Below, one piece after another: positions 27,488 through 56,214 of a stretch of 64,000 nt of DNA (position 1 is the stretch's first letter; every line of letters starts with the position of its first letter). A model generated the notes under the pieces. That model was not told the origin of the DNA. It worked only from the letters and a program-made list of their open reading frames with translations, and searched no databases. The stretch spans positions 41,654-105,653 of the forward strand of contig CAYJTP010000001.1 of assembly GCA_964373175.1 (NCBI GenBank), in the 5' to 3' direction. A program made the position numbers and the translations under genes. The DNA is from an uncultured Planctomycetales bacterium (GTDB taxonomy: Bacteria > Omnitrophota > Gorgyraeia > Aquiviventales > Aquiviventaceae).

Positions 27488-29010
27488 CCTCGGAATCCTT
27501 CCTCGGCCACCCGCAGGGCTCCTCGTCCGTCGACCAGCTGCTGTCCTGTCGAGGACATGTGGTCCTGTAATTGTTCATCGTCTCGCAAGCGGTTCACCAA
27601 ACGCGACACACGGGACAGCAGCCTTGGATCCCCTGCCCGGCCGGCGAACTGAACGGCTCCGAGACCAGCCAGGGCCTTCAGTTGTGCTCGTTGATTCTCG
27701 GCCACCTCAATAGCGATCGTTGGACATCCGACACAGGCCAGCTCATAGAGCGATTGCCCTCCCGCGGTAATCGCCACATCGGCCTGCACCATGTAGTCAA
27801 CCAGTTGCGTGGGGCTCTCCACGACACACACGGGACGCCTGAGTCGCTTGACCAGCGATCTGATCCGTTCTGGGTTTTTGAAAAACGGCCCAAGGATCGC
27901 GGTCACGCTGAACTCGCCTTTTAATTCCTCTAAGAGACCCAGCAACCCTGGCATCAGGTGATGGGGATCCGAACCACCCCCGAGCATCACCAACACCTCC
28001 TGCACTCTTGGGCGTGGTCTCCGTCTGGGAGGACTCCAAAATTCCGGACGAAGCAGGGCGTACGCTGGACCCAACAGGAACCGCGTGTCTCCCGATGAGG
28101 AACGGTAGGACAGGTTGCGCGCATGGGCACCGGGGCTGACGACCAGCTGACAGGGAAACGGAAAACGGCCCAGATCGTCAATGGCCATGACGAACAAGCC
28201 GGCCGCTCGCAAACGAAGGAGGTACTCTGCGTCCACATGGTAGGAATCCACCACGACCCCTTCGCACCGACACCGGGCGGAGATCGCCAGCGTGTGTAAC
28301 AGGTCGGACGGTCCACCTCGTTCGATACCATTCATGCGCTCACTCTGAAAACCAAGGCCGGACAGGTGCCTCTCCACACCAGGGTCCCCATCGGACAGGA
28401 AGCAGGAACTGAGCCCCTTTTTGAATGCGAAGGCCTTTGCCAACGCACAGCAGCGCTGGAAATGGCCCAGCCCGCTCTTCGCGCTCGCGTCCACACGGAA
28501 CAGCATCTGTCGTGGTTCCTGTTGGCGATCCCGGTACACGAACTCCAGCACCTCCCCTTCAGCAGATCGCCGCGTGAGAGCCAACACGAACCCAACCCGC
28601 TCAAATGCCTTTCGAGAGGCGTCGTTACCCGCTTTGACCAGCGCCACAACCCGCTCGATCCGATCCCACTTCAGTGCCAACTGGCATACGCGGCGGATGG
28701 CGCTCACCCCATACCCCTGTCCTCGTTCGGCAGAATCCACGCTGAGGTGAATGAAGACGTCAGGAATCTTTGCCTCCAGCCGAACATACCCGATGGGGGT
28801 CTTTGATTCATTGAGGATGACGAACAGCGTCACCGTGGGATCGCGCAGGACCCGGTGGTACCAGTTCTTGTGGAGCGGATACTCAATGGGTGTCATGTCG
28901 AAGGAGGCCCGGCGCGTCTCCGGTTCGTTCCTCCACTCCCAGATACGCCGGCAATCCTCCGGTGTCCCTCGCCGCAGTGTGACCGTCGGCGATCCCGCCA
29001 CCTCACGCAA
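27472..29010 (-). CDS. bifunctional PseH-like GNAT N-acetyltransferase / PseG-like UDP-2,4-diacetamido-2,4,6-trideoxyhexose hydrolase (MurG-like GT-B)
   Basis: N-terminal GNAT (TPEDCRRIWEWRNEPE..., VALVKAGNDASRKAFERVGF). C-terminal MurG/PseG-like domain (LVMLGGGSDPHH..., ITAGGQSLYELACVGCPTIAI). The track ORF starts at GTG 29058; TTG at 29010 is preceded by AGGAGG with a 6-nt spacer and sits 2 nt after the upstream stop. Confidence 0.7.
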   Translation of the reverse strand: MREVAGSPTVTLRRGTPEDCRRIWEWRNEPETRRASFDMTPIEYPLHKNWYHRVLRDPTVTLFVILNESKTPIGYVRLEAKIPDVFIHLSVDSAERGQGYGVSAIRRVCQLALKWDRIERVVALVKAGNDASRKAFERVGFVLALTRRSAEGEVLEFVYRDRQQEPRQMLFRVDASAKSGLGHFQRCCALAKAFAFKKGLSSCFLSDGDPGVERHLSGLGFQSERMNGIERGGPSDLLHTLAISARCRCEGVVVDSYHVDAEYLLRLRAAGLFVMAIDDLGRFPFPCQLVVSPGAHARNLSYRSSSGDTRFLLGPAYALLRPEFWSPPRRRPRPRVQEVLVMLGGGSDPHHLMPGLLGLLEELKGEFSVTAILGPFFKNPERIRSLVKRLRRPVCVVESPTQLVDYMVQADVAITAGGQSLYELACVGCPTIAIEVAENQRAQLKALAGLGAVQFAGRAGDPRLLSRVSRLVNRLRDDEQLQDHMSSTGQQLVDGRGALRVAEEGFRGCGSR

Positions 29011-30061
29011 CGTCACCCTCCTGCAGCGCTGATTCAGCCGCAATGGCTCGCCGCACACGCCTGCCGAGCAGCTCGTCGAAGCGCTCCGGCTTCACTCCTC
29101 CATCCAAATTCCCACACCGCAGGACCGCGATGTTGTCGCGGGTCAAGACCTCTCCCGAGATGAGCTGCCGAACCGCGAAGATACTCCGGCGCGCAAACTT
29201 CCTCAACTCCGCCTCAACGGCCTGGACCGTCTTTTCACCGGATCCCAAGGCTCGTTCTCCTTCGCGGATCTTCTGAACCATCTGGTGCAATTCATGGGGC
29301 TCAAGCGCAAACGAGTGATCCGGCCCAGGCAGTGCGTTGCTTAAGGTGAAATGCTTTTCGATGAGGTCCGCCCCTAAGGCGACGGCGGACAAGGGCCCAA
29401 CAACCGGATCGCGCGAGTGGTCTGAGAATCCCACGGGGACACCAAATGCGGCTTTCATGCTCGCAACCGCCCGGAGATTCAGAGACTCCAGGGGTGCAGG
29501 ATACGCCGCCGTACAGTGCATCAAGATCAGGTCGCCGTTTCCGGTCCGTCGGAATTCCTCAACCGTGTTGGACACCTCCTCCAAGTTCGCGGCGCCCGTG
29601 GAGATGATCACCGGCTTGCCCTTCTTCGCTATATGTCGCACGAGGGGAATGTGGGTCATCTCATAGGAGGCAATCTTGAAGGCGACCACGTAGGGGTGAA
29701 GACGATCTGCCGTCTCTTCGTCGAACACAGAAGCAAGGAAGAGGATGTCTTTTTCCCGACAGTAGGCCGACAGCTCCGGCAACCATTCATAGGGCATCTG
29801 CATCTCGGCGATGATGTCATAGATGGAACGAGGATCCTTCAGGTACTCGCTGTGGCCCGCCCCTTTTGGATAGAGCGTCTCCGCACGGAACAGTTGGAAC
29901 TTCACGGCATCGGCGTTGGCAGAGGCCGCCACATCGATGAGTCGCTTGGCCTGCTGAAGACTGCCGTTATGGTTGCTGCCCGCCTCCGCGATGATGCAAC
30001 AAGGCTGCCCGTCGCCGATCCATCGACTGCCAATCCGCACCTTGGAAACCCCTGGTGTCAT
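29003..30061 (-). CDS. pseI: pseudaminic acid synthase / N-acetylneuraminate synthase family with C-terminal SAF domain (PseI-like)
   Basis: 352 aa. CCIIAEAGSNHNGSLQQAKRLID...DAVKFQ...GFSDHS plus a C-terminal SAF domain. Adjacent to the PseH/G fusion. Confidence 0.8.
   Translation of the reverse strand: MTPGVSKVRIGSRWIGDGQPCCIIAEAGSNHNGSLQQAKRLIDVAASANADAVKFQLFRAETLYPKGAGHSEYLKDPRSIYDIIAEMQMPYEWLPELSAYCREKDILFLASVFDEETADRLHPYVVAFKIASYEMTHIPLVRHIAKKGKPVIISTGAANLEEVSNTVEEFRRTGNGDLILMHCTAAYPAPLESLNLRAVASMKAAFGVPVGFSDHSRDPVVGPLSAVALGADLIEKHFTLSNALPGPDHSFALEPHELHQMVQKIREGERALGSGEKTVQAVEAELRKFARRSIFAVRQLISGEVLTRDNIAVLRCGNLDGGVKPERFDELLGRRVRRAIAAESALQEGDVA
29017..29022 (-). promoter_or_regulatory. 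Shine-Dalgarno AGGAGG for the TTG start of the PseH/PseG fusion
   Basis: Perfect AGGAGG 6 nt upstream of the in-frame TTG at 29010. Confidence 0.4.
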
Positions 30062-43214: not shown

Positions 43215-44078
43215 CTACCGTGGTGGGCTCTTCGACCGCCGATTCGATCCAAGGGGCAACAGCGGTTTCTCGTCTACTCGGTTCAGACGATACCGTATGG
43301 CCTGGCTCACATACTGCCGAAACCGAATATACCACTGCTTCAGGTCAGCAGGAGCGCGATCCCCGTAGTTCAGCTGTTGGACGGAAGGCTGGGTGTGATC
43401 GATTCCCACCCCTCCTTCCGTGGTCACGGTATAGAGCAGCGACATCATGGCGCTGCCATCACAGCGTCCGAAACAGGCGTACATGGTGGGGGAGGCTACC
43501 CCAAGCAGGCGATCCTCTAGAGCCAGCCAATAGGTCCCAAACGGGGCGATCTCTGCGCGACCGGCCTGGACCACGTGACCTCGAGGGTCGAAGATTTCAT
43601 ACTGATAAGACGCCACGCGCGCATAGTCGTTCTTCGTACTGATATTCATCAGGACGAGACCGCAGGATTGGACGGTCGAATCGACAAAGTGTACGGAAAA
43701 GCCGTGGTAGCGATGGGGTCTCCCTGAATGGTTGATCGAGGAGGGAGGGGTATACACCACATGGGTAAATCCCCCGCCTCTGAGATAGTAGTGATACCGG
43801 TCTTTCTTGTAGGGCCGGTCGCTCAGGAGGATGGTTTCAACCAAGCCCTTCTGTCCGTCTCTGATGGAGGGTTGCAAGAACGCGTGATCCAGTTCAATGG
43901 AGGCAACACCCTGGAGAGGCTCCCCGTCATTCCACACGTGTTCCTTGAAGACCCGACCCTGCTCATCACGAGCCCGAAGAAGGACCATGTATCGCTGCCC
44001 TTCATCACACCGCAAGACGGTTCTCATCCCCTCATGGATCTGGAAGTTGAATGGGAGCCAATCCTTGGAAATTTCCAT
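43215..44078 (-). CDS. hypothetical protein, no recognisable family
   Basis: 287 aa, soluble, no motifs recognised. Tightly coupled (1-nt gap) to wzm. Confidence 0.5.
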   Translation of the reverse strand: MEISKDWLPFNFQIHEGMRTVLRCDEGQRYMVLLRARDEQGRVFKEHVWNDGEPLQGVASIELDHAFLQPSIRDGQKGLVETILLSDRPYKKDRYHYYLRGGGFTHVVYTPPSSINHSGRPHRYHGFSVHFVDSTVQSCGLVLMNISTKNDYARVASYQYEIFDPRGHVVQAGRAEIAPFGTYWLALEDRLLGVASPTMYACFGRCDGSAMMSLLYTVTTEGGVGIDHTQPSVQQLNYGDRAPADLKQWYIRFRQYVSQAIRYRLNRVDEKPLLPLGSNRRSKSPPR

Positions 44079-44080
44079 CC

Positions 44081-44881
44081 TTAGAGGTGGTGGAGATTAA
44101 AATCGTCTGTCGTCTGGGTCAGGAGCCACCCTTTCCCCTTCGGACCTCGGACGAAGTACAGGTAGCGCGACGACGTCTTGAATTCCACCTCAAACAGCTC
44201 GCCCAGGTCGACCCAGAGACTGGGAACGAACGCGACGTCTTGGGTCACGTACCTCCATGGGGCTGACCCTTCTTTCAGGCCGAACGTATAGGTCAACCGT
44301 GTTGGCCTGTGCCGGTACGCATCCCAAGGGGCACACACGATGGCGGTCACGCGCGCTCCGTCCTTGGGCACCCAAAAGATCCGTTCCCGCGCATAGTTAT
44401 TGCGCGAGGCACTGGAGTGCACACAATCAAGCGTCCGCCGGATACGCCTGCTCTGATAACATGCGTAAAAGATGGGTGCCAGCCGGTGATGGTCCACGCA
44501 AAAACCTGCTGGATACCCCTCACGCTCCGTCCAGGCAAAACACACACCGCGGAGATCCGACTTGTTCAGCAGGGGTTCGAGCGACAGGCACTGGCTCTGA
44601 TGGTAGGGGAGGCGGACCCGAATCAGGTGGGCCGAACCCTTATCGAGGACCATGGCGTGAAACAGCATGGGTTCCCGAAATGTCTCATCGCAGACTGCAT
44701 GGCAGTAGGTGCATAACAGATGGGTGTCAAACCCATCGGCACACAACACGGGGAGACAGGAGCTGCCTCGGGCCACGTACCGACTCACCGCCCCAAAGAG
44801 ATCGCTTCCCAGTGATTCGACCTGGATTCGATCCGCGTCGTTGAGCTCCGTTGATCGCTGCATCGAGATGGTGGTCATCTT
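44081..44881 (-). CDS. hypothetical protein (Cys/His-rich), no recognisable family
   Basis: Start at MTTISMQRS, 1 nt after the upstream stop. Contains CxxC pairs (LLCTYCHAVCDETF). The track ORF extends 46 codons further. Confidence 0.45.
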   Translation of the reverse strand, partial: KMTTISMQRSTELNDADRIQVESLGSDLFGAVSRYVARGSSCLPVLCADGFDTHLLCTYCHAVCDETFREPMLFHAMVLDKGSAHLIRVRLPYHQSQCLSLEPLLNKSDLRGVCFAWTEREGYPAGFCVDHHRLAPIFYACYQSRRIRRTLDCVHSSASRNNYARERIFWVPKDGARVTAIVCAPWDAYRHRPTRLTYTFGLKEGSAPWRYVTQDVAFVPSLWVDLGELFEVEFKTSSRYLYFVRGPKGKGWLLTQTTDDFNLHHL

Positions 44882-45840
44882 TTCACGGCACCTCTGCTGA
44901 ACGCTTTTGCCCACGCGACACACGCCTTCGCGCGTTGGGGCCCGAGAACCCAATCGAGGCTCCTTCGTGCCCTGTGCTTCAACGTCGAACTGTAGAAATA
45001 GGTGATCTGATACCTCCAAAAAACCAGCCGCAGAGCTCTGGCTTTGGCCACAGCATGGTTCGAGCCCTGCAGGTTCAGTGCAGGTCTTTCGACCGGAGGG
45101 GCGGCCTTCGCCAACACCCGTAAGCCTCTTCCTTCATCCCCCACAACACAAGAAGAAAATCCAACCTGTCCCAGCAGGGACAAAAACGATGGGCGTGTGA
45201 AGAGCCGTAAATGCTGGGCCCCGAGGAACTCGCCCAGGTGGTGGCGAGGCTTCCAGGCATTGGGGACTTCAAGATACAACCGTCCGTCCGGTCTCAAGAG
45301 AGTCTTCACCCGCGTCAGAAAGGCGCAGGGGTCAGAGACATGCTCCAACACCCGCAAGGCGGCCACCAGATCAAATCTCCCTGGAGGCAGGGACGCCTCC
45401 TCGAAAGTCCCTCGCCGGATATCCAACCCGTACGCCCGTTGCCCAAACCGGGCAAAGGCGGAGGGCTCGATGCCGCACGTCTCCCATCCCAGCCGATGAA
45501 ATCTCAACAGGAAGGAACCCTCGGAGCAACCAATGTCCAGCACCCTCCCCCTCTGCCTGAGATGGGGAGCCGCCCAGTGAAAATCTTCCTCGGCCTGACG
45601 CCCCTTCCACCACAGGTGCTCCTCACTTGGGGTGTCTTCCGCCCGCAACGTTTCGTAGAGTCGTGTTAACTCCCCAGGCTCCAGTTGCGGCCGAGAGTAC
45701 ACCAATCCGCAGGTCTGACACATCACCTTCACTACGCGGGCCCGTTCCAGCCCCAATCGCTGGAGGTACGCATCCCGGCGCAGCACGTAGACCGGCACCG
45801 CCGCCCAGGAACCACACACAAGACACGGGACGTCCTTCAT
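44875..45840 (-). CDS. SAM-dependent methyltransferase with N-terminal Cys4 zinc-binding domain (Methyltransf_13-like)
   Basis: CLVCGS...CQTCGLVYSRP ribbon; VLDIGCSEGSFLL motif I. Start at the ATG in an ATGA overlap. Confidence 0.75.
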   Translation of the reverse strand: MKDVPCLVCGSWAAVPVYVLRRDAYLQRLGLERARVVKVMCQTCGLVYSRPQLEPGELTRLYETLRAEDTPSEEHLWWKGRQAEEDFHWAAPHLRQRGRVLDIGCSEGSFLLRFHRLGWETCGIEPSAFARFGQRAYGLDIRRGTFEEASLPPGRFDLVAALRVLEHVSDPCAFLTRVKTLLRPDGRLYLEVPNAWKPRHHLGEFLGAQHLRLFTRPSFLSLLGQVGFSSCVVGDEGRGLRVLAKAAPPVERPALNLQGSNHAVAKARALRLVFWRYQITYFYSSTLKHRARRSLDWVLGPQRAKACVAWAKAFSRGAVKR

Positions 45841-46541
45841 CGGCTGTATTCTCCTGAGCCACACAATTGTAGGAGAGCCTGCGCGAGCCTCAATCCATCC
45901 TCGTCATGGAGATCGACCTGGCTACTCACATCCCGGACTGGAACTAACCCGATTCGATCTCCAAGCCGTCTACCAGATCGAACGATGTCGGCTCGAATGG
46001 CGGTCGCCATCCCCGCCAACTCCTTATAGGTAGGTTGCACCTGATGACGCGTATGATCTCCCTCCTCAGGGTGGAGCTGCTCGAGGCTGTTTTCCGAAAA
46101 CCGCCAGAAGCGATGGCGCTCCTCCCGAGCGGCAAAGACCGTATCCAATCCTTCTGTCTGAAGCACCTCGACGACATCGTCGATCAGCCCTGGTGGCCGG
46201 ATCGGATGCGTCACCTCGAGCAAGACCACAATATCCACCGGGTAAGAGTCCTCTTGCTCGAGCCACTGGAGGCAATGTTGGAGGACCTGAATCATCGGCA
46301 CCCCTGCAGCCGCGAGGTGGGGTGGTCGGAAAAAGGGGACCTCCGTCCCGTAACCCCTGGCCACCTCCGCGACCACGGCGCTATCCGTAGAGACGAGAAT
46401 CCGGTCCAGACATGTCGCCTGACGTGCGGCCTCAATCGTGTAGGTGAGCACCGGTTTTCCACACAGCAGGGACTCTGGTGTCATCTGGGCCTCCGGGTCA
46501 CTGCCCCGGAGCGGGATGATCGCTACCGTGTTCAGATGCAT
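45837..46541 (-). CDS. NeuA-family cytidylyltransferase (CMP-ulosonic acid synthetase-like), divergent
   Basis: VAIIPLRGS...GKPVLTYTIEAARQ...ILVSTDS...EVPFFRP follows the CMP-NeuAc synthetase pattern but lacks the GSKG loop. Confidence 0.65.
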   Translation of the reverse strand: MHLNTVAIIPLRGSDPEAQMTPESLLCGKPVLTYTIEAARQATCLDRILVSTDSAVVAEVARGYGTEVPFFRPPHLAAAGVPMIQVLQHCLQWLEQEDSYPVDIVVLLEVTHPIRPPGLIDDVVEVLQTEGLDTVFAAREERHRFWRFSENSLEQLHPEEGDHTRHQVQPTYKELAGMATAIRADIVRSGRRLGDRIGLVPVRDVSSQVDLHDEDGLRLAQALLQLCGSGEYSR

Positions 46542-47920
46542 GATCGCCCTTCCAGCCATCGTGCGAGAAATGCCAGCGTGCGATCAACCGCCCCGCTCTC
46601 CTGTTGGATCAGGCGAGCCCCGGCAGTCCGAATCGCCTGAAGTGGAGCGTGGCCGGTCAGAACGTCAACCGCTCGGCTCGCCAGAGTCATGGGTGAATCC
46701 ACCTCAAGCCCTGGCCAAGCCTCCAACAACTGCGTAGTGGCGGTTCGCCAAAGATTCATATGGGGGCCAAAGAGGGGTGGCACCCCGTGCGCTAATGGCT
46801 CTAGGGGGTTATGGCCCCCTCTCCGTTCATTGATTGGGACAAGACTGGACCCAATAACGGCCACATCGGCCGCACCATAGATCGTCCGGAGCTCCCCAAA
46901 CGTATCCACTACTAACGCGTCGTACCGCCCCAACTCTGGCGTAGGATGTTGGGCCACCGCGGTTCGCGTCATGACCCTGAAGCCATGTTCCCTGACCCGT
47001 CCCACCATTGCGGGAACGTCGTGAAGCCAGCGTGGCGCGATGATCAACCGGCTGCTCGGAAGGCTCGCCCGGATCAGGCTGAAGGCCTCAAGCATGGTTC
47101 CAATTTCTCCTGGAGGCAGGCTCCCAGCAATCATGACGCGATCCTCTTCTCGAAGGCCGAGGCTACCCCGAAGCGCTTGACGCTCCGCTGGAGAGAGTTG
47201 GAGATGGCTCAGATCCCCTTCCAATTTCCCTGTGACGGCCAACCGATCGGTCGGCACCCCCAGCGAACGAAAGGCGTCGTAATCGGCTTCGCTTTGGACC
47301 GCGATGGCATCGAGCGTGCGGTGGACGCCCAAGGCGAGCGAACGTCGCAAACACGGGTTCGCCACGTGCACATTCCGAGTAAGCACGGCGTTCACCAGCA
47401 CCGTTGTCACCCCTCGCCGCTTCGCATGCTTGAGGAGCGTTGGGAAATAGGCATTCGCCACAAACACCAACGCCTTAGGATTCAACCGGCGGACCACGCG
47501 CGAGACTGGAAGTGAGGTATCCCAAGGTGGGAATGCCACCCGCCCTGGACCATACCACTGGCGGAGCAGCCCGTGTGCATCGTACGAATCGGTGGAGAAA
47601 TAACACGGGTCTCCTCCCGCTTCCAATTGGCGAATCAGGGACTGCGCCATGATCACCTCACCGCCAGAATTCATATGGATCCACAGCGGTTTGGTCCCAT
47701 CATACTGTTCGAGCTCTGCCGGCAACCACCCCCACTGATCCCAAAACCGACGGACCATCAGATCGTGCACAGCGCGACGAGGGTGCAGCAGCACGCGCTT
47801 CGTCAAGGTAATTGGGAAATACGCATACGCCAATGCTGCATAGGGCATCTGATAGCGAGCCCACGTGGTCCAGCGCTCCTGGGCGCTGCGGAACTCACCG
47901 GTCGAGGGATTCCCCATCAC
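46532..47920 (-). CDS. 3-deoxy-D-manno-octulosonic-acid transferase-like glycosyltransferase (GT30, KdtA/WaaA family)
   Basis: 462 aa. N-terminal LWIHMNSGGEV (WaaA HxxSxGE-like) and a C-terminal GT-B domain (VVDTFGELRTIYGAADVAVIGSSL). Confidence 0.7.
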   Translation of the reverse strand: MMGNPSTGEFRSAQERWTTWARYQMPYAALAYAYFPITLTKRVLLHPRRAVHDLMVRRFWDQWGWLPAELEQYDGTKPLWIHMNSGGEVIMAQSLIRQLEAGGDPCYFSTDSYDAHGLLRQWYGPGRVAFPPWDTSLPVSRVVRRLNPKALVFVANAYFPTLLKHAKRRGVTTVLVNAVLTRNVHVANPCLRRSLALGVHRTLDAIAVQSEADYDAFRSLGVPTDRLAVTGKLEGDLSHLQLSPAERQALRGSLGLREEDRVMIAGSLPPGEIGTMLEAFSLIRASLPSSRLIIAPRWLHDVPAMVGRVREHGFRVMTRTAVAQHPTPELGRYDALVVDTFGELRTIYGAADVAVIGSSLVPINERRGGHNPLEPLAHGVPPLFGPHMNLWRTATTQLLEAWPGLEVDSPMTLASRAVDVLTGHAPLQAIRTAGARLIQQESGAVDRTLAFLARWLEGRSCI

Positions 47921-49698
47921 GTCCGCAAGATGTATTCGACCAACCGGAACGGAAAGTCATCCTTCACGTGCAGGAGTTCAAGCCTAGCCCGTTCAAACAT
48001 CGATAACCAGCGCGCCGTCGTGGTTGGCAAGCCCTGCCACGTCAGGGGATGGATGATGTACTGGTAAAACAGCGGATGGATGCGGTCCGGAAACGGCAGT
48101 GCCTTAACCTCTTCATCCGACAGGCGGTTGAATTCCCCGACAAAGATATACCGCCCGGGGAACTGCCGCTTGAGCCCCGCAAAGAGCTGGACGACCGGCT
48201 CTTCGCCATCTCGCAGGAACTCATGGAAGGACATGATGCCGTTGAAGGCACCAACCTCCTTGACCTCGCTGGCAAACGTCTCTGGTCGGGTGAAATCGCC
48301 CTTGACCAGCCGAATGCGGTCAGTCAATCCGGCCTCTGCTACACGGCGCCGGGCCTCCTCAAGCGCCTCCTCTGAGATGTCGATCCCGATACCCCGAAGA
48401 GCCGGATCCAACCGACAGAAGGCAATGAGCGTTTCGCCAGATCCGCAGCCGAGATCAGCGAACGTCCGCACACCCCGCTTGGTCAGCTCTGACACGACCC
48501 AGGGATAGTTTGATTTGCCCGTGTAGTAACTGCCGCGGGCCAGCCAATCCCCTCGGCGGACGAAACCCACGCCGTAGCGCTTTTCCTCGCGTAGTGCGGG
48601 CACGAGTTCGTAGAGCAGACACGCATAGGCGCCGACCGCTCCAAAGGACATGGCCAGCACGGGATCGGTGAAGAGCCACTCGCCGCGGTCGGTGAGGGCA
48701 AATCGGTCCCCTTCTTTCTGCAGCACGCGGTCGGCAAAGGCGAGGAAGTGCAGCACGCCATCCAAGAGGTACGTGTTGAGTCCACATTCCGCGGCCAATT
48801 CTTTGACGGTCTTGGGACCGCTGCGGCGCAGCACCTCGAAGACACCGGTCTCGTGGAGAGCAAACAGGATAAAGGCCCTTGCGTACCCATTCCGAATGTT
48901 CTGAGACCACGTTTTCACATCGTCCCCAAGCCAACCCTCTTTCAGATCAGTGCCGCCGGCGCCATTGCCAGACAGTAGCGGGGCAGCGGGTGCCTCCGGA
49001 TAACGCAACAGCTGTTCCGCCAGCCAGAAATCCAAGGGGGTATGGATATCGATTGACGTGCGAAAATCATTCGTTTCCACAATGTCCACGCGCGAGCCCA
49101 CACGCTGGCCTGCTCGGATGAGCGACGCTCTGGTGGCGCAGGCCACGCCGGTATCCTCCCGGTAGAGGTACGCCTTGCGGCTCTGCCGGGAGGTATAGGT
49201 CGCTAATTCTGGCGCAAGCCGCTGGAAACCTTCCGGCGTCCGATGCCAGTAGTTTTTGTGCGTCTTGTACCCTGAGAAGACGGTTTCCAACTCGGGATGA
49301 GCCGCAAGCCGATGGACGCACTCCCGGATTATGTCCGGCGTCCGGAACAGGTCCGTCGTCTGCAGGTACACGACGATGTCAAACGTGATTCCCCGCAGTT
49401 GTTCGTACGTGACGAGGGCGTGCTGGAGCATGGGCTCGGCAGGTACAGAGTCCTCAGCGAGCTCGCGCGGACGAAGAAACGGGACCTCAGCTCCAGCGTC
49501 GCGGGCGATGCGGGCGACACGCTCATCCTCGGTGCTCACGAGCACGACATCGCACACCCCGGAGACCTTCGCGTGCTCGATGGTATGGACTAGGAGGGGT
49601 TTGCCGCCGATCGGCAGCAGGTTCTTACCCGGCAAGCCCTTTGAACCGGCCCGTGCCCCGATGATCGCGATTGTCCTTGGCAGCGCGGCTGGCATCAC
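47917..49698 (-). CDS. fusion: NeuA-family cytidylyltransferase + class I SAM O-methyltransferase (with dimerisation/wHTH-like linker)
   Basis: 593 aa. IAIIGARAGSKGLPGKNLLPIGGKPLLVHTIEHA...VPFLRP (CMP-sugar synthetase). C-terminal FADLGCGSGETL motif I, preceded by a winged-helix-like segment as in plant-type O-MTs. Confidence 0.75.
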   Translation of the reverse strand: MMPAALPRTIAIIGARAGSKGLPGKNLLPIGGKPLLVHTIEHAKVSGVCDVVLVSTEDERVARIARDAGAEVPFLRPRELAEDSVPAEPMLQHALVTYEQLRGITFDIVVYLQTTDLFRTPDIIRECVHRLAAHPELETVFSGYKTHKNYWHRTPEGFQRLAPELATYTSRQSRKAYLYREDTGVACATRASLIRAGQRVGSRVDIVETNDFRTSIDIHTPLDFWLAEQLLRYPEAPAAPLLSGNGAGGTDLKEGWLGDDVKTWSQNIRNGYARAFILFALHETGVFEVLRRSGPKTVKELAAECGLNTYLLDGVLHFLAFADRVLQKEGDRFALTDRGEWLFTDPVLAMSFGAVGAYACLLYELVPALREEKRYGVGFVRRGDWLARGSYYTGKSNYPWVVSELTKRGVRTFADLGCGSGETLIAFCRLDPALRGIGIDISEEALEEARRRVAEAGLTDRIRLVKGDFTRPETFASEVKEVGAFNGIMSFHEFLRDGEEPVVQLFAGLKRQFPGRYIFVGEFNRLSDEEVKALPFPDRIHPLFYQYIIHPLTWQGLPTTTARWLSMFERARLELLHVKDDFPFRLVEYILRT

Positions 49699-51356
49699 CC
49701 CTCCAGGGAACTCACGGACGCAGCGGTGGGGACGTGGGGTCGCTCATGGATAAGCTCGATGACGCGCGCCACACGCTGTGCCCGCCGCTCGTCACGGCCT
49801 TGGTGGATCCCGTGATAGTGGTACACGCTGGCGAGCGGCGTGTACACGATCTGGTGGCCCTCCGCCAGCACCTTCTTTGCCCAATCTCGATCTTCAACAC
49901 CGTTGAGCTGCTCGTCGAACGGGATTCGTTGCCACACGGCCTTGCAGATCATCGAGTTCGCGTTATGGAAGAAGTAGTCCTGCCCATGTTGCATGCGCCG
50001 CTCTGCTCCAAATGTCGTCCATAAGTCCCGTTTATCAAAATGACTCGTATCGGGCATCGGCTCTTGTCGGCCATAGGCAGCCGCCACAAATGGGAGTCGG
50101 CCATAGCCCGTCGCCCGTTCGCATGCGAAGCCCTCGAGCCACCGGTCGTGGACCGGGATGCAGTGGGCCGACAGGTTGACCACCCATGGGCAGTGCGCGG
50201 CGTCAATGCCCCGATTGAGGGCGCGGCCGAAACTGAACTCATCATCACGCATGGTGAGGACGCGGCACTCGAACTGGCGCGCGACCTCTACCGACTCATC
50301 CGACGAGTCGTTGTCCACGACGATGATCTCCTTCGGCGGCCGCTGCTGGTTGAGGAGGGCCCACAGCGAGCGACGCAGCCATCCGGCTTCGTTCTTGGTC
50401 CGAATGACCACGGAAATCTCCAGTGGCAACCCCGAACTCCTCACAGTCCACGGAACCACCATCCCGAAGGTCATGGGCTCGCCGGGCTCGCGGTCATACA
50501 GCAACTGCGCGCCCTCCAGGCGAGCCGTCATGGCAGGCGTGAAGCCTTTCAGCTTAGGCACCATCTCAACGTCGCTCGAGGCCAAACGACTGCCGGCTCG
50601 TAGGGACCGTCGGGCAACTAGGCTTGGCGCAAACGCCAGCGGCGATTCGCCCTGGGGAACCGCAGCCAGCTGTGCTGCTCCTTGCTGAAACGTGGAAACC
50701 AGCGACTCGTGTTCCCGCACGTAGGTGACCAGCCGCGCGAACTCATGTGGATAGAGGCTTCCCTGGTGCTCAGGTCCTCCAAGGCTTCGGTTCAAGGTCA
50801 ATCCCTTCAAAATCGTCTCGGCTCCGGCCAATGCCCCGTTCAGGGCTCGCCACGGCTCTGGAAACTCATCAGAATAGCCCACGCCCCATCCGAGCTCACG
50901 AACCTGTTGTCTGAGTCTGAACCACTCCGACAGCCGCTCGCCGCGGTTCATGACGATGACGACCAGATGGACTAACCGCTCGTCAACCGGCCCCAGGTCG
51001 AGGTCAACTGTAGCATTGTTGTCGATGAGCAGCAGCATCGGCTTCTGGCAGGTTCGAAGCGCCAGGAGGGACTGGAAGCCCTGAAGGTCTCTGGGACGGA
51101 GGAGATAGCCTGCCGCATCACGGAGTAGCGGCTGATGCAGATCGTCGGAGCTCGAGATTTCGAGGTAGGGATCAAGGTCACAGGCCCTCGCGCTCTGGCA
51201 TAGCTGCTGTGCCACATGGTTCGAAACCCATGGTCGCCGTGGGATGACCACACCAGAAACCTTGCACTCCACAGCCCACTCGATGAGTCGTAGTCCTCGT
51301 TCAGGCGCCTGCTGCTCAATCATCAGTTCAGCGAGGAGTTGCCGCGGTGTGCTCAT
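49695..51356 (-). CDS. fusion: degenerate NeuB-like (TIM-barrel) domain + GT2 glycosyltransferase
   Basis: C-terminal ISVVIRTKNEAGWLRRSLWALLNQQ...IIVVDNDSSDES is GT2. The N-terminal ~300 aa has NeuB-like spacing (GWGVGYSDEF versus NeuB IGYSDHT) but lacks the His. Start at the ATG in an ATGA overlap (MSTPRQL). Confidence 0.6.
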   Translation of the reverse strand: MSTPRQLLAELMIEQQAPERGLRLIEWAVECKVSGVVIPRRPWVSNHVAQQLCQSARACDLDPYLEISSSDDLHQPLLRDAAGYLLRPRDLQGFQSLLALRTCQKPMLLLIDNNATVDLDLGPVDERLVHLVVIVMNRGERLSEWFRLRQQVRELGWGVGYSDEFPEPWRALNGALAGAETILKGLTLNRSLGGPEHQGSLYPHEFARLVTYVREHESLVSTFQQGAAQLAAVPQGESPLAFAPSLVARRSLRAGSRLASSDVEMVPKLKGFTPAMTARLEGAQLLYDREPGEPMTFGMVVPWTVRSSGLPLEISVVIRTKNEAGWLRRSLWALLNQQRPPKEIIVVDNDSSDESVEVARQFECRVLTMRDDEFSFGRALNRGIDAAHCPWVVNLSAHCIPVHDRWLEGFACERATGYGRLPFVAAAYGRQEPMPDTSHFDKRDLWTTFGAERRMQHGQDYFFHNANSMICKAVWQRIPFDEQLNGVEDRDWAKKVLAEGHQIVYTPLASVYHYHGIHQGRDERRAQRVARVIELIHERPHVPTAASVSSLEG

Positions 51357-52483
51357 CGATCCCACTCGGTCGCCATCGCACAGAGCACCCGTTCGTGCGT
51401 GGTGGAATGATCCAGGCCTAACTGACGAAGCCATGGCCGGCAGACGAAACGCGTGAAGGCCTCAGCGGCCTGCGCGAGGTTCATCATCCGCCCGTTCAAC
51501 GTCGGATGCCCGCTCCATCGGGCATGGCGGAGGAACACCGTCTCCAAGGGACTGTAGATGATGTCGTAGCAGACAGTGGTACGAGGCAACCGACTGCAGC
51601 TCACCAGCGAGACCTCCTGATTACGCTGGATGTCTCCGACGGACTTCCAATACCAGTCCTCACGGAACACATCCTCTGCTCCCGGGGTGCCAGCAAGGAC
51701 TTCAGGATGGGCCGGCCCAAGCGCGGAATATGGCTCCAAGCAAGTCCACCGACCGTCCCGCAACTTTCGGATACCCCCCTGTCCCTTTACCGTCGCGTTG
51801 ATGACCAGATCCACTTGAGGCAGGTGGTGGACGATCATTCCTTCATCGATTGCGGTCAACCGTCCGGACCGCGTCCCTGCTAGACGCTCCACTAGATGCT
51901 GCGCCTGGGGTTGCGTTCGATTCGCAATGATCAGCTCGCCCTGCAGCATCTGGTCCCAGAGATAGAAGGCCAGCGCTTGAGCCGCACCCCCTGCTCCCAG
52001 TAACAGCACACGCGCACGGGAGAGATCTGAGAAGAGGGGCTGGCTGCCGCCAGCAGCCGGCGAAGTCAAGGCGCGCAGCCCGCCCAGCCCATCGGTGTTG
52101 TAGCCTACAAGCCGCCCATCTGCTCCCCGGGCGATGACGTTGACGGCGCCGATACGTTCAGCCAGTAGGTCGAGCTCGTCCAGCAAAGGGATCACGGCCA
52201 CCTTGTAGGGCACTGTCACGCTGCCGCCCAAGAAGGCGTCACTGCACCGCAGTAGCTGGATGACCTGAGACAACTGATCCTGCGAGACGTCGAAGGGAAC
52301 GTAGACCGCTTCAAGGCCAAGCGCGGCAAATGCCGCGTTCCATAGGCGTGGGCTCTTCGCATACGTCGAGGGCGTATCGCCCAGGATCGCGGCGATGCGC
52401 TTGCCCTGCAGTGCCGCCACGTCAAGCGGGTTGGTCACCAGCCGCTGGAGTTCCTCAAGCCACGTGTCCTGGGTGGTCGTCAT
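51353..52483 (-). CDS. shikimate 5-dehydrogenase (AroE) family oxidoreductase homolog
   Basis: 376 aa. N-terminal substrate-binding pattern (GDTPSTYAKSPRLWNAAF, NVTVPYK) and the glycine-rich NAD(P) site VLLLGAGGAAQA. Confidence 0.7.
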   Translation of the reverse strand: MTTTQDTWLEELQRLVTNPLDVAALQGKRIAAILGDTPSTYAKSPRLWNAAFAALGLEAVYVPFDVSQDQLSQVIQLLRCSDAFLGGSVTVPYKVAVIPLLDELDLLAERIGAVNVIARGADGRLVGYNTDGLGGLRALTSPAAGGSQPLFSDLSRARVLLLGAGGAAQALAFYLWDQMLQGELIIANRTQPQAQHLVERLAGTRSGRLTAIDEGMIVHHLPQVDLVINATVKGQGGIRKLRDGRWTCLEPYSALGPAHPEVLAGTPGAEDVFREDWYWKSVGDIQRNQEVSLVSCSRLPRTTVCYDIIYSPLETVFLRHARWSGHPTLNGRMMNLAQAAEAFTRFVCRPWLRQLGLDHSTTHERVLCAMATEWDR

Positions 52484-53325
52484 GCAACCCTCACCAGCCC
52501 AGCCGTCAGCCTCCGTCCAACAGCGGGAGCCATCGTTTCGAGCTGCTGCATGAGCTGCCCAAACGCCCCGTAGTCTAACGCCTGCAGGGGATCCACGGCT
52601 GCCTGCTCCGGTGTTGGATGGACGTCAATCAAGATCCCATCGGCACCAATCGCCAGGGCCGCGCGCGCCACGGGGGCGACATACGGCCGTCGAAACGTTG
52701 CGTGACTCGGATCAACCAAGATGGGGAGGTGCGTGTACTCTTGCGCCGCGGGAACCACCTGGAGGTCCACGATGAAGCGCGACGTAGGCGCATGGGTATG
52801 AGGCGCGACGATGCCGCGCTCGCACAAAACAACCTGTGAATTGCCGCCAGCGAGGAGATACTCAGCGGCCCCGAGCCAGTCGCGCAAGCTGGCTCCAAAG
52901 TGGCGCTTGAGGAGAACGGGTTTGCCTATTTTCGAAACGGCTTCAAGGAGCGGAACGTTCTGCATGTTGCGCGAGCCGATCTGCAGCATGTCGGCATAGG
53001 TGGCCACCACTTCCACCACCCGCACATCCATCACTTCCGTGACGACCGGTAACCCTGCGGCGTCCCCGGCTTCGCGCAGGTACCGCAGGCCTTCTTCACG
53101 CAATTCAAACATTGTGGTGTTCCGATACGGAAATGTGAGCGGCTTGAACGCCCCGCCACGCAACATCTGCGCCCCAAGCTCCTTGACGCGGTGGGCAATC
53201 TCACGGATCTGCGCGCGACTCTCGACCACACAAGGGCCAGCAATCACCGTGAAGGTCTCAGCGCCTATCGCGTGACCGCCAACCGTCACGATCGTCTTGT
53301 GGGTTGGGGTTCGCCGGGCTGCCAA
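52480..53325 (-). CDS. DAHP-synthase-I-beta / Kdo8P-synthase family aldolase, divergent active-site motif; start uncertain
   Basis: KTIVTVGGHAIGAETFTVIAGPCVVES...LRGGAFKPLTFPY (canonical KPRTSPY)...PILVDPSH. The track ORF (to 53517) would overlap the upstream gene by 154 nt; TTG at 53325 is provisionally chosen. Confidence 0.6.
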   Translation of the reverse strand: MAARRTPTHKTIVTVGGHAIGAETFTVIAGPCVVESRAQIREIAHRVKELGAQMLRGGAFKPLTFPYRNTTMFELREEGLRYLREAGDAAGLPVVTEVMDVRVVEVVATYADMLQIGSRNMQNVPLLEAVSKIGKPVLLKRHFGASLRDWLGAAEYLLAGGNSQVVLCERGIVAPHTHAPTSRFIVDLQVVPAAQEYTHLPILVDPSHATFRRPYVAPVARAALAIGADGILIDVHPTPEQAAVDPLQALDYGAFGQLMQQLETMAPAVGRRLTAGLVRVA

Positions 53326-53363
53326 GGGAAGGTTGTGCTCTAGGTCACTGGGTGAGATGTCTT

Positions 53364-54416
53364 TCAGTCCGCTCCTCCTCCGCTCCTGGCTAGCGCTGGC
53401 GAGAGGTTGACCACGCGTCGTTGCGCCGACGACTGGTAAATGGCTTCCATGACCTCGGCCAGCCGCACACCGCTGTCCACGACATTGGCTTCCGGGGTCG
53501 TTCGCGTCTCGACGCATCGCAGGAACGACTCCAGTTCGAGCTTCACCTGATCCACCGGGCCTAGGCTCGGCAGGTTCAGCCGAATACCCCCCTCATTGAC
53601 CAACTGCCATACCCCCTCGCGCAACGCATGGTGCACGCGAAACAACTCTACGGTCCCAGTCTCGACATCCGCTTCGATGGTCGCCTTTGACCCACAGACC
53701 ACGAGCTCTTTGGTGGTCTTGGCGTGTGGAACGACACGGTCGTTCCACCGACCAGGCTGAATATAGCCGGACTCCACGTGAGCAAGCACCCCATTGGGGT
53801 AGGTAAGCAGCACGACTGACAGATCTTCCAACCCACGATTCAAGTGATCGCGGGTCACGGCGAAGACCTCTTCAGGCTCGGCCGCCAGCAACCAGTTGAT
53901 CAAGTCAATGAAGTGGATGGCATCCGTGTGCGTGACGCCCACGTCGGTCCGCGCACGCTTAAATCCCATGAACCGTCCTGAGAAATAGCGGAGGCCGCCC
54001 AGCGTCCCCAGCGCGAGCTGCTGCTTGATCCACTGCGCGATCGGATGGACACGATAGTAGTAGCCGACCTGGACGATCCGGCCGGTCTGCGCAACCAGCT
54101 CGCTGAGTTCCCGCGCCTCGGCCGCCGTCATCGTCATTGGCTTCTCAATGAACGTATCCTTGCCAGCGGTCAGTGCCTCACGGCAGAGCATTCCGTGCGT
54201 ATCTGTCGCCGTCACGATGTCCACCACGTCCACTGTTGGCAACCAGGATCGGAAGTCAACACCAACCCGCTCACGCGGAACCCCACATGCCACAGCCCAC
54301 GTGTGCCGCTTGGGCAACACCTCTGCGACCCACAACGACTCTCGGTAGCCAAGCTCAAGCCACGCCTTCAGGTGGACCTGGCCGAAGCCGCCTAACCCAA
54401 TCTGGAGCACGTTCAT
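53364..54416 (-). CDS. Gfo/Idh/MocA-family oxidoreductase
   Basis: MNVLQIGLGGFGQVHL, EKPMT motif, 350 aa. Confidence 0.8.
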   Translation of the reverse strand: MNVLQIGLGGFGQVHLKAWLELGYRESLWVAEVLPKRHTWAVACGVPRERVGVDFRSWLPTVDVVDIVTATDTHGMLCREALTAGKDTFIEKPMTMTAAEARELSELVAQTGRIVQVGYYYRVHPIAQWIKQQLALGTLGGLRYFSGRFMGFKRARTDVGVTHTDAIHFIDLINWLLAAEPEEVFAVTRDHLNRGLEDLSVVLLTYPNGVLAHVESGYIQPGRWNDRVVPHAKTTKELVVCGSKATIEADVETGTVELFRVHHALREGVWQLVNEGGIRLNLPSLGPVDQVKLELESFLRCVETRTTPEANVVDSGVRLAEVMEAIYQSSAQRRVVNLSPALARSGGGAD

Positions 54417-54502: not shown

Positions 54503-55162
54503 TCAAAGAATCGCGCTCGCTGGCTTAGATGAAGAGGCGGCTTGCTTTCGCACGATTTCTTTGACCTCTTGGCCAGTCTGCTCGAAACGCCGGCCACAGC
54601 GTGCACAGCGTCCAGTGGCATGGGAGACTACCGGTGTAAACGGAAGCCGCTGCCCACACACGCACATCCATCCCTGAAGTCTCGCCGGGTTACCGTACAT
54701 CAGTGCAAACGCCGGCACATCGTGCGTGACCACCGCACCGGCTCCGATGAATGCCTGCTCCTCAATCGTCAGGCCGCAGACGATCGTCGCATTCGCGCCA
54801 ATGCTCGCTCCGCGCCGGACACGTGTTGGTATGTATCCCGTCGCCGGGTCCTTGGGGAACGCTGAGCGGGGATCCTTCACATTGGTAAAGACAGCCGAAG
54901 GACCGCAGAAGACGTCGTCCTCCAGGGTCACCCCCGCGTAGATCGACACGTTATTCTCGATCTTCACCCGGTTGCCAATACTGACCCCCTTACCGATCAA
55001 CACGTTTTGCCCTAGCCGGCAGTCACGACCGATGCGCGCACCGCCCATCACGTGCGAAAAATGCCACACGTGCGTCCCTGGTCCGATCACCGCGCCAAGA
55101 TCCACCACGGCCGTGGGATGAATCATAACCGCCTGCTTGGCAGATTTCAGAGCCTGACCCAT
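54503..55162 (-). CDS. wbpD: hexapeptide-repeat (left-handed beta-helix) sugar N-acetyltransferase, WbpD/PglD-like, with C-terminal zinc ribbon
   Basis: Repeated [LIV]G..x..x hexapeptides (IGRDCRLGQNVLIGKGVSIGNRVKIENNVSI). C-terminal CVCG...CARCG. Confidence 0.75.
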   Translation of the reverse strand: MGQALKSAKQAVMIHPTAVVDLGAVIGPGTHVWHFSHVMGGARIGRDCRLGQNVLIGKGVSIGNRVKIENNVSIYAGVTLEDDVFCGPSAVFTNVKDPRSAFPKDPATGYIPTRVRRGASIGANATIVCGLTIEEQAFIGAGAVVTHDVPAFALMYGNPARLQGWMCVCGQRLPFTPVVSHATGRCARCGRRFEQTGQEVKEIVRKQAASSSKPASAIL

Positions 55163-56214
55163 GCGCCTCCACGATCCATCGACTGCTGGGCCGCATCCAG
55201 CACCCGCAGCACCCGCAAGCCGCCCTCACCGTCGCTGAGCGGTTGCTTCCCTTGGCGGACACACTCCAAGAAGTGTTCACACTCAAGCTTCAGCGGCTCA
55301 GTCAAGTCGATGCGGGGAATCCGGATGTCACCGCTGCGCAGCGTGATCCACCAGTCACCGTACGAATCATAATCACGCATCGCCCCCTTATCGTAGATGC
55401 GCAGCTTCTCGGTCGGCTCCATGTCATCGAACGTCACCATCTTCTGGCTGCCTACCACGGTCACCTTGCGAATCTTGTGCGGATCGAGCCAACTCAGGTG
55501 GATGTGGGCGAGTGGCTCGTCTGAAAACTTCAGCGTCACGAAGACGACGTCCTCAACCTTCTCCTGGACGTAGCACGCGCCGTGCGCCGCGACAGCAACG
55601 GGCAGTTCCCCGAGCAGATCGAGAATCATCGAGACATCGTGAGAGCCAAGGCTCCACAGCACATTCTCATCTCTACGGATCTGCCCGAGGTTGAGCCGCT
55701 GCGTATAGATGTAGTGCACCGTCCCGAGCTCACCAGATTCCACCAAGCGCTTGAGCGCTAGAAAGGCGGGGTGGTATCGCAAGAGATGGCCAACCATCAG
55801 GCACCGGCATTGCACTTTGGCCAACTTGATACACTGCTCTGCATCAGCCAACAGGAGCGCAACGGGTTTTTCGATGAACACATGCTTGCCCGCCTCGAGT
55901 GCCTGCAGGCCAAACTGAGCATGGGTCACCGCTGGGGTCGCAATCACCACCGCCTCGATCGATTCGTCTGAAAAAATGGGGGCGGTGGTCTTGACATACC
56001 GAACCTTAGGAAATGCGCGCCGCATGGCGTCCAGCCGTTCGTCCAGGATGTCGCAGCAATAGACGAGTTCGGACCCGGGTAATTGGTGAAACTCCCGCAC
56101 GAGATTCTTGCCCCAGTCCCCACACCCAATCACCGCCAGGCGTACAGGCGCTGTTGTCTCGGCGCGATCTGCAGATCTGCGTGTGGTTCTTGGGGCGGCC
56201 GCACGCACAGTCAT
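55147..56214 (-). CDS. wbpB: Gfo/Idh/MocA oxidoreductase, WbpB-like UDP-N-acetylglucosaminuronate 3-dehydrogenase candidate
   Basis: [20 protein letters not shown] motif. Adjacent to the LbH acetyltransferase, as in WbpB-WbpD pairs. Start at the ATG in an ATGA overlap. Confidence 0.75.

Follow-up and report, generated by a model that had tools for sequence, protein, structure and literature searches.

A degenerate NeuB-derived module fused to a GT2-like domain in a putative CMP-ulosonic acid cassette of an uncultured Omnitrophota bacterium

A stretch of 64,000 nucleotides from an uncultured bacterium of the Omnitrophota (deposited as an uncultured Planctomycetales bacterium; assembly GCA_964373175.1, contig CAYJTP010000001.1, positions 41,654 to 105,653), referred to here as the window, encodes a protein of 553 amino acids in which a degenerate NeuB-type barrel and a SAF domain are followed by a GT2-like domain. 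The gene (49695..51356, from the list of open reading frames (ORFs)) is on the minus strand, as are all genes between 29003 and 63975, a surface-glycan region. Overlaps of 4 bp join it to both neighbours, its ATG to the stop codon of the gene before it (ATGA) and its own stop codon to the start of the gene after it (GTGA); hence the gene is part of a translationally coupled operon. A longer version starting at 51434 is possible, although this start is used by no homologue. Residues 1–225 (50682..51356) comprise the NeuB-derived TIM barrel, residues 240–305 (50442..50639) a SAF/AFP-like domain, identified by a weak Pfam SAF match and by profile alignment to the SAF domain of PseI, and residues 312–538 (49743..50423) a GT2-like domain of the GT-A fold. 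The AlphaFold2 prediction, for which 25 family sequences were used (pLDDT 83.8, pTM 0.81), contains eight beta/alpha units (b1 at residues 6–11 to b8 at residues 181–186), a small beta domain (residues 245–300) and the GT-A domain (residues 312–538), and for a chain of three domains such a pTM points to confident packing as one unit. A frameshift or misassembly as the source of the fusion was ruled out, since the same architecture of barrel, SAF and GT2-like domain is present in ∼25 proteins of a 5.8-billion-protein collection, from independent Logan, ENA, JGI and NCBI assemblies and from two GTDB genomes (L004 and L005).

NeuB ancestry and loss of the synthase active site

A preliminary description of this DNA, made from its letters alone, likened the N-terminal ∼300 residues to the NeuB TIM barrel, and Pfam, BLASTP, profile–profile alignment and structure prediction with Foldseek all agree with that assignment. 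The Pfam NeuB family (PF03102) matches residues 155–220 with 30.0 bits (gathering threshold 22.1, E=4.5e-7), although only over positions 171–236 of the 241 in the profile, SAF (PF08666) gives a weak match at residues 244–299, and the C-terminal third of the NCBIfam NeuB_NnaB model aligns to residues 155–283. Scores against the NCBIfam equivalogs are far below the cut-offs for NeuB (TIGR03569, 38.9 versus 399.65 bits) and PseI (TIGR03586, 32.3 versus 340.25 bits). BLASTP against the NeuB encoded elsewhere in the window (29003–30061) gave 35% identity over 110 amino acids (E=2e-9), pairing GVGYSDEFPEP with PVGFSDHSRDP and AETILKGLTL with ADLIEKHFTL. A search of the Protein Data Bank (PDB) with the whole protein returned only GT2 matches above noise (NeuB matches had E values of 0.2–0.3). 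With a profile of ten full-length orthologues (alignment A2), PseI (8h2c, E=2.7e-10), SpsE (1vli) and NeuB (6ncs) were found, in matches that begin near position 142 and take in the SAF domain. Profile–profile alignment of the same N-terminal module with four NeuB enzymes gave a probability of 99.4% (E=3.1e-20) over 296 columns.

When the predicted structure was compared with the PDB using Foldseek, members of the NeuB family headed the list (PseI 8h2c, E=8e-15 over 335 columns, then SpsE 1vli and NeuB 2wqp/1xuu; E values of 8e-15 to 5e-11 over 335–363 columns), with GT2 enzymes ranked after them. The likeness thus withstood the structural comparison that could have overturned it, and it holds over the whole ∼300 residues, but in two grades: it is detectable in the sequence from about residue 150 onwards, and over residues 1–150 it is given by predicted fold and profile alignment only. 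The modelled barrel fold alone would place the module in the broader group of PEP-aldolase TIM barrels. It is the sequence signal together with the SAF domain, in the order of barrel then SAF/AFP-like domain seen in NeuB, PseI and LegI, that identifies the barrel as NeuB-derived.

The extent to which the active site is retained was assessed at the 16 positions at which four bona fide NeuB/PseI/SpsE sequences do not differ; for N. meningitidis NeuB, B. subtilis SpsE and C. jejuni PseI, the sequence was rebuilt from the alignment to the window NeuB. Residues are numbered as in N. meningitidis NeuB, where we take the relevant ones to be E25, K53, Q55, K129, S132, E134, S154, N184, Y186, S213, H215, E234, H236, D247 and R314, numbers that fit the sequence. 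By hhalign mapping, the 553-residue protein keeps two of the 16, E25 (its E10) and S213 (its S162), and has lost H215, H236, K53, K129, S132, S154, E134, E234, Q55, T110, Y186, D247, F288 and R314. In NeuB, the metal ligands are His215 and His236, three serines and an asparagine bind the phosphate of phosphoenolpyruvate (PEP), and a glutamine, a tyrosine, an aspartate and Arg314, the last of which is essential, bind ManNAc (PMC11339185).

The preliminary description had noted that the metal-binding histidine is replaced (SDH to SDE), and the strings that it quoted are present, GYSDE at residues 160–164 (50865..50879) and AETILKGLTL at residues 179–188. The pairing of GYSDE with the GFSDH of the window NeuB in the BLASTP alignment bears this out, since GYSDE is the counterpart of NeuB G-x-S-D-H and H215 has become E164; the second metal-binding histidine is also lost, KGLTL (residues 184–188, 50793..50807) being the counterpart of NeuB E-K/R-H-F-T with E234 replaced by L183 and H236 by G185. 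Orthologues have E, R, L or N at the position of H215 and G or A at that of H236. At the PEP-binding positions K53 has become V37, K129 L85, S132 P88 and S154 L110, with only S213 (S162) kept, while at the sugar-binding and catalytic positions Q55 is a gap or proline, E134 is D90, Y186 is V or N, D247 is E196 and R314 is P267. Compared with the NeuB/PseI/LegI/SpsE enzymes (PF03102 plus PF08666; 1xuu, 8h2c, 1vli, 6ncs), therefore, the module is homologous but is without the metal-binding, PEP-binding and catalytic glutamate residues and Arg314; it is fused to a GT2 domain, and parts of its barrel are deleted in orthologues. To judge from these substitutions, the N-terminal module is predicted to be incapable of NeuB-type synthase catalysis, and the suggestion of a catalytically dead module is thereby supported.

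The same mapping was applied to the top matches obtained when 1.84 billion representative proteins were searched exhaustively. For the 108 that were well covered the outcome was bimodal, with 80 keeping 12–16 of the 16 positions and 26 keeping 1–7, so the procedure does recognize intact enzymes. Residues of the fold (G211, G229, K235, T238, G245, P254 and G302) are conserved both in 54 degenerate sequences and in 87 canonical NeuBs, whereas conservation at the catalytic positions falls from 0.91–1.0 in the canonical to 0.15–0.59 in the degenerate group. The reverse is true of a motif at the end of the SAF domain, YD..P.TFG (Y287, D288, P294, T296, F297 and G298), conserved at 0.8–0.96 in the degenerate sequences and at ≤0.5 in the canonical ones; in the window protein it is part of the clade-specific LLYDRxPxEPxTFG (residues 285–298, 50463–50504). 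Because the fold is kept, the catalytic positions are lost and the SAF-end motif is gained, this is the signature of a pseudoenzyme and not of random decay. Two GT2-like proteins (P0033 and P0034) have as their sole N-terminal remnant a SAF-type segment with YD..(E)AITFG, which suggests that the YD..TFG motif is the minimal retained part of the NeuB relic.

Constraint is unevenly distributed along the fusion. A homologue of 553 residues (P0001) is 96% identical to the window protein and twelve more (P0002–P0013) are 50–58% identical; only five clusters at 50% identity match the profile of the N-terminal module at E≤1e-30. Mean pairwise identity among full-length orthologues is 37% for b1–b6, 54% for b7–a8, 50% for SAF and 73% for the GT2 part. 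Strands b4–b6 are wholly absent from five of the 25 fusion orthologues and three more keep 20–32 residues there, ∼half of the SAF domain is lost in four of the 25, and the GT2 part is complete in all; an intact barrel is thus not required. The former ligand-contacting positions are variable among orthologues, as at H215. Comparison of the window gene with its 96% relative gave dN/dS values of 0.53 for the N-terminal module and 0.24 for the GT2 part (28 and 11 substitutions), an underpowered comparison with 18 synonymous and 22 non-synonymous differences, which is weak evidence that constraint on the module is relaxed but still present.

The GT2-like domain and its gene arrangements

Pfam PF00535 (Glycos_transf_2) matches residues 315–410 with 72.7 bits against a gathering threshold of 23.3 (E=4.5e-20), and the domain has the GT-A fold. 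Its motifs in the window protein are VVDNDSSD (residues 346–353), LSAHC (395–399), FDKRDLW (440–446), FFHNANS (462–468), GVEDRDWA (486–493) and HYHGIH (513–518); invariant across the three gene arrangements described below are VDNxSxD, (L/I)S(A/G)HC, YG(R/K)Q, DKRDL, FFHNAN, (V/I)EDRxW and HxHG. The canonical DxD/DxH motif is absent from the domain, which has S396-A397-H398 (LSAHC) where GalNAc-T2 has LDSHC, and the serine and histidine of this S-x-H are invariant in all 14 sequences aligned (alignment A3), representing all three arrangements. An acidic E/D-D motif following the acceptor loop is present and invariant (E488-D489 in GVEDRDWA), and D489 is the putative catalytic base. The later HxHGIH motif could presumably provide other metal ligands, as we take H359 to do in GalNAc-T2. 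Relative to the GT2 GT-A enzymes SpsA, K4CP, TarP, WrtF and PcManGT and to GT27, the family is distinguished by the invariant serine in place of the first aspartate and by invariant motifs of its own (YGRQEP, FDKRDLW, FFHNANS and HxHGIH). NCBIfam has no named subfamily for the domain, for its fusions with cytidylyltransferase-like domains or for the second cytidylyltransferase of the cassette.

A scan of one genome per species yielded 35 loci, whose ORFs were then searched with the window proteins. They represent Omnitrophota, Planctomycetota, Acidobacteriota, Gemmatimonadota, Nitrospinota, Nitrospirota, Chloroflexota, Methylomirabilia, Acidimicrobiia and Alphaproteobacteria, and three arrangements were observed. 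In the first, termed type (a), which accounts for the bulk of the 293 significant matches of the first search, a protein of ∼450 residues combines the GT2-like domain with a C-terminal cytidylyltransferase-like domain. A NeuB gene is directly adjacent in three of five contexts examined (L039 8934–9974, L043 6964–7992 and L044 9423–10469), and these contexts also contain a 2-hydroxyacid dehydrogenase, a CTP_transf_3 protein and a methyltransferase. These NeuBs, in which both histidines and every PEP ligand are present, keep 12–13 of the 16 positions and share changes on the sugar side (E134 to S/N, F288 to K and R314 to N) that suggest a distinct sugar substrate. A second cluster, a canonical one of Leg type, is encoded on the other strand of one of the three contigs (L043).

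In the second arrangement, type (b), a stand-alone GT2-like gene (∼225–232 residues) follows a stand-alone NeuB-like gene (313–349 residues), mostly with a 4-bp overlap. Two cytidylyltransferase genes are downstream, sometimes with a GT30 gene, and the NeuB-like proteins of the 22 loci keep 0–6 of the 16 positions. The third, type (c), is the NeuB-like/GT2-like fusion as in the window, with one or two positions kept. Genes for a GFO/IDH/MocA oxidoreductase, a DAHPS-like protein and a shikimate-dehydrogenase-like protein are directly upstream in most type (b) and type (c) loci. Since GT2-like and NeuB or NeuB-like genes adjoin one another in the other arrangements, the fusion joins long-standing operon partners, and from the residues kept in the type (b) proteins we conclude that the NeuB partner was degenerate already before the fusion. 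A NeuB-like partner is missing altogether from some relatives of the GT2 part.

The ∼450-residue proteins, which are annotated as 'glycosyltransferase family 2 protein' or 'rhamnosyltransferase', share all of the motifs of the GT2-like family, and their modules resemble the window cassette in combining NeuB, CTP_transf_3, methyltransferase and dehydrogenase components. They differ in that the GT2-like domain has a C-terminal cytidylyltransferase-like partner, NeuB is separate and has its catalytic residues, a dehydrogenase of 2-Hacid_dh type takes the place of the shikimate-dehydrogenase-like one, and there is no DAHPS-like gene. Identity of the GT2-like domain is 73% among orthologues from different phyla and 41–49% to the type (a) proteins. 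This high conservation, the charged invariant motifs and the repeated fusion to pathway enzymes suggest that the domain acts on a soluble pathway intermediate, and that a variable polymer acceptor is the less likely target. NeuB-type enzymes are normally supplied by the NDP-sugar hydrolases NeuC, PseG or LegG, and no homologue of these is present in the type (a) modules with NeuB and a cytidylyltransferase. A GT-A enzyme with water as acceptor would fill this gap and would also explain the close association with NeuB; the GT2-like enzyme could then free the aldose from an NDP-sugar in the manner of PseG or NeuC, or could glycosylate an intermediate. The domain could equally well be a true glycosyltransferase, perhaps with a CMP-ulosonate as donor.

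The surrounding cassette and its DAHPS-like enzyme

The cassette (44875–54416) contains, in order, genes for a GFO oxidoreductase, the DAHPS-like protein, the shikimate-dehydrogenase-like protein, the 553-residue protein, a cytidylyltransferase–methyltransferase, a GT30 enzyme and a second cytidylyltransferase. The first of these, a GFO/IDH/MocA oxidoreductase by Pfam (53364..54416), has a conserved position in homologous contigs. The DAHPS-like gene (52480..53517) probably has its true start near 53370, the first ATG of the ORF being too far upstream. Its product is of type I-beta (NCBIfam NF006421, 352.6 bits versus a cut-off of 335) and ∼50% identical to solved type I-beta DAHP synthases (1vs1, 1zco and 1rzm), from which it differs at the aldose-phosphate site. 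In the same alignment the three solved enzymes read GGAFKPRTSPYSFQG, DPSHPAGRR and ERGIRTFE, whereas the window protein reads GGAFKPLTFPYRNTTMF, DPSHATFRR and ERGIVAPHTHAP; KPRTSPYSFQG has thus become KPLTFPYR with a three-residue insert, and ERGIRTFE has become ERGIVAPHTH. It retains Cys, His and Asp as metal ligands, with a conservative change of Glu to Asp. The altered motif is present in all cassette copies examined, as KPLTF in the window and 20 of 22 related loci and as KPCTF (KPCTFPYR) in the other two.

The arginine and the serine or threonine of the KPR(T/S) motif of DAHP synthases hold the phosphate of erythrose 4-phosphate. This motif is absent from the DAHPS-like protein, while the three solved enzymes have KPRTS. 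Since the arginine and serine have been replaced by leucine and phenylalanine, the substrate is probably a new one, likely a non-phosphorylated aldose of the kind used by NeuB. The altered motif and the degenerate NeuB-like protein encoded alongside together suggest a non-orthologous displacement, in which the PEP-condensing step passed from NeuB to the DAHPS-like enzyme. The DAHPS-like gene is located in a glycan cluster with cytidylyltransferases, in which the only other shikimate-pathway gene is the divergent AroE-like one that follows it. This gene encodes a shikimate-dehydrogenase-like oxidoreductase of 376 residues (51353..52483; Pfam Shikimate_dh_N and Shikimate_DH) that is ∼100 residues longer than AroE and scores below the cut-off of all NCBIfam aroE models. 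It always follows the DAHPS-like gene, the pair co-occurs in most related loci, and no dehydroquinate (DHQ) synthase or dehydratase gene is nearby. In the modules with GT2-like/cytidylyltransferase fusions it is replaced by the 2-hydroxyacid dehydrogenase gene.

Downstream of the 553-residue protein is a fusion of a PseF-like cytidylyltransferase with an S-adenosylmethionine (SAM)-dependent methyltransferase (47917..49698; Pfam CTP_transf_3 and methyltransferase families), which scores below the NCBIfam cut-offs for PseF (99 bits), ApyS (111 bits) and 2-ketoarginine methyltransferase (97 bits). The last two, which are the best NCBIfam matches of the methyltransferase part although far below the cut-offs, we take to be C-methyltransferases that act beside an alpha-keto acid, and the matches hint at C3-methylation of a 2-keto-3-deoxy sugar acid. 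The Kdo-transferase-like GT30 gene (46532..47920; Pfam PF04413, 93 bits) is divergent, with 184 bits against the NCBIfam WaaA models (cut-offs 363–617), and is in an O-antigen-type cluster, not among genes for the lipid A core. The second, divergent cytidylyltransferase ('CTP2'; 45837..46559; Pfam; NCBIfam PseF 81 bits) is of the type that in other lineages is the C-terminal fusion partner of the GT2-like enzyme (for example, in L033).

Interpretation and wider genomic setting

On balance, we lean towards the view that the N-terminal module is a NeuB-derived pseudoenzyme that serves a conserved GT-A enzyme as a structural partner, in a cassette for a CMP-activated ulosonic acid in which PEP condensation would probably be carried out by the rebuilt DAHPS paralogue. 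The 553-residue protein would be a fusion of two ancestral operon partners. Its working part would be the C-terminal 240 residues, a highly conserved soluble GT-A (GT2-like) enzyme, and its N-terminal 310 residues a former PEP-condensing, NeuB-type synthase without metal, PEP and sugar sites, retained as a non-catalytic partner of the GT2-like domain. Such a relic might contribute stability, dimerization via the old domain-swapped NeuB interface, or docking. The cassette as a whole would make, CMP-activate and transfer an ulosonic acid, with the condensation of PEP and an aldose, once the task of NeuB, now performed by the DAHPS-like paralogue. A more far-reaching version, which we hold only tentatively, is that these loci constitute an undescribed CMP-ulosonic acid pathway of many, mostly uncultured, phyla, in which the rebuilt DAHPS displaced NeuB and the relic became an obligatory non-catalytic subunit or domain of a Ser-x-His GT-A enzyme that acts on a soluble intermediate, for example as an analogue of PseG or NeuC.

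The preliminary description proposed that the dead module had been kept to bind sugar acids and so to recognize an acceptor carrying an ulosonic acid, and this part of it has fared poorly. More generally, the module might be a carbohydrate-binding module that presents an ulosonic acid, whether free, CMP-linked or on an acceptor, to the GT2 domain, by analogy with the lectin domain of polypeptide GalNAc-transferases. GalNAc-T2, with its appended lectin domain, is indeed among the closest GT-A structures by sequence, the cassette is built on ulosonic-acid genes (cytidylyltransferases, GT30 and a PEP-aldolase), and the module is best conserved at its b7/b8 loops and at E10, on the old active-site face. 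The domain appended in the GT27 GalNAc-transferases is of the ricin lectin type, whereas that of the window protein is N-terminal and derived from an enzyme. The evidence from the orthologues, however, is adverse: all known ManNAc and PEP contacts except S213 are changed and most of them vary, the barrel is truncated in ∼1/3 of orthologues and SAF in others, and some GT2-like orthologues have no NeuB-like partner. The clade motif, moreover, is at the SAF/GT2 junction and not at the mouth of the barrel, and its position beside the GT2 domain fits a protein–protein or inter-domain role better than a ligand pocket. We therefore regard carbohydrate binding as unlikely.

A barrel that has acquired a new activity, of epimerase, lyase or phosphatase type and independent of metal-dependent PEP chemistry, would make the protein bifunctional. 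The degenerate clade has a wide distribution, is ancient and evolves under purifying selection, with 26 representative clusters among the top matches, and stand-alone NeuB-like proteins of ∼340 residues in loci that lack a DAHPS-like gene (L008, L012, L013, L014 and L016) share a consistent alternative residue set, E25, N53, Y/F129, C134, D213, H215, Q234 and R/P236. That of L013 (9929–10951), the sole one scanned with Pfam, gives a full-length NeuB match of 158 bits, and these particular proteins may be neofunctionalized NeuBs. The fused subfamily, including the window protein, does not have that residue set but variable positions, whole barrel segments are dispensable in it, and no pattern of another TIM-barrel enzyme family was found by Pfam or NCBIfam, which makes a new activity improbable for the fusion. 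Still less probable, in our assessment, is a recently inactivated, functionless remnant that was fused through loss of a stop codon and is heading for deletion. Conservation of the module is much weaker than that of GT2, internal deletions are frequent and dN/dS is above that of the GT2 part, all as decay would have it, but both the fusion and the degenerate pair in split form are found across many phyla (Omnitrophota, Planctomycetota, Acidobacteriota, Chloroflexota, Nitrospinota and others). Intact reading frames, conserved fold residues and the gain of a clade-specific motif also speak against decay, as do the confident fold of the module in the AlphaFold2 model and a dN/dS below 1.

Several observations weigh against a purely structural partner served by a DAHPS-like synthase. 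The residue mapping over b1–b6 rests on profile alignment at ∼12–14% identity. The b7/b8 loops (GYSD and KGLTLNRSLGGPxHxxSLYPxEF) and E10, the counterpart of E25, are strongly conserved on the former active-site face, so the barrel may contain a remodelled ligand pocket. With serine in place of the first aspartate of DxD/DxH, classical metal-dependent transferase activity of the GT2-like domain is not assured. Seven loci (L008, L012–L014, L016, L019 and L020) have a degenerate NeuB-like protein with no DAHPS-like gene within 10 kb, and in the operon of L013, the only such locus checked, Pfam revealed no other obvious synthase or PEP-aldolase. Intact stand-alone NeuB-like proteins were expected in the loci that lack a DAHPS-like gene, but this was ruled out, as those present keep 4–6 of the 16 positions. 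Decay after displacement by DAHPS is thus incomplete as an explanation, and in these loci either the synthase is elsewhere or the NeuB-like proteins have a new activity.

Ulosonic acids (sialic, pseudaminic and legionaminic acids and Kdo) cap bacterial surface glycans and are relevant to immune evasion, recognition by phages and the design of vaccines. With an intact neighbour, a degenerate neighbour and a fused relic, the three arrangements constitute a natural series from biosynthetic enzyme to pseudoenzyme domain, and the DAHPS-like gene marks a candidate displacement within a sugar pathway of a PEP-aldolase family of the NeuB type by one of the DAHPS/KDO8PS type. They also define a large, highly conserved and uncharacterized GT-A family (LSAHC, FDKRDLW, FFHNANS and HxHGIH) tied to ulosonic-acid modules. 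For annotation there is a warning, in that counting Pfam 'NeuB' matches as sialic-acid-type synthesis over-calls the degenerate clade. In the literature covered, which was not exhaustive, neither the fusion nor the GT2-like family nor the KPLTF subfamily of DAHPS was found to be described. Undescribed CMP-activated ulosonic acids, whose genes are not known, have been reported in environmental bacteria by mass spectrometry (bioRxiv 10.64898/2026.04.20.719630), which provides context but is no evidence for the window locus.

The region around the cassette is consistent with surface-glycan synthesis throughout. At one end is an LptD-like gene (62428–63975), followed directly upstream of the cassette by WbpA/WbpB/WbpE/WbpD-like genes of the UDP-2,3-diacetamido-2,3-dideoxy-uronic acid route (54503–62322: two UDP-sugar 6-dehydrogenases, a GFO oxidoreductase, a DegT aminotransferase, a hexapeptide acetyltransferase and two epimerase/dehydratases), which could supply the aldose precursor. 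Downstream is a Wzm/Wzt ABC transporter pair (41004–43214) in which Wzt has a C-terminal glycan-binding domain (PF14524), implying an O-polysaccharide with a defined chain-terminating residue, and the adjacent ulosonic-acid and methyltransferase genes could supply such a cap. Two ORFs between a methyltransferase gene and the transporter (43215–44078, 287 residues, and 44081–45019, 312 residues) have no Pfam or NCBIfam match; the pair has unannotated counterparts at the equivalent place in the 96%-related contig L041 (15794–17448). Further downstream is a complete Pse/Leg-type nonulosonic-acid cluster (29003–41035), with PseB-like and PseC-like genes, a GFO oxidoreductase, WbuX and HisH/HisF-like amidotransferase genes, a formyltransferase, a GNAT protein, a DUF4910/DUF2172 M28-like protein and a fusion of CTP_transf_3 with a class-III aminotransferase (GSA-aminomutase-like, 462 bits). 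It ends with the intact NeuB used above for comparison (29003..30061; Pfam NeuB, 279 bits), a bona fide NeuB/PseI-type synthase with all 16 active-site positions.

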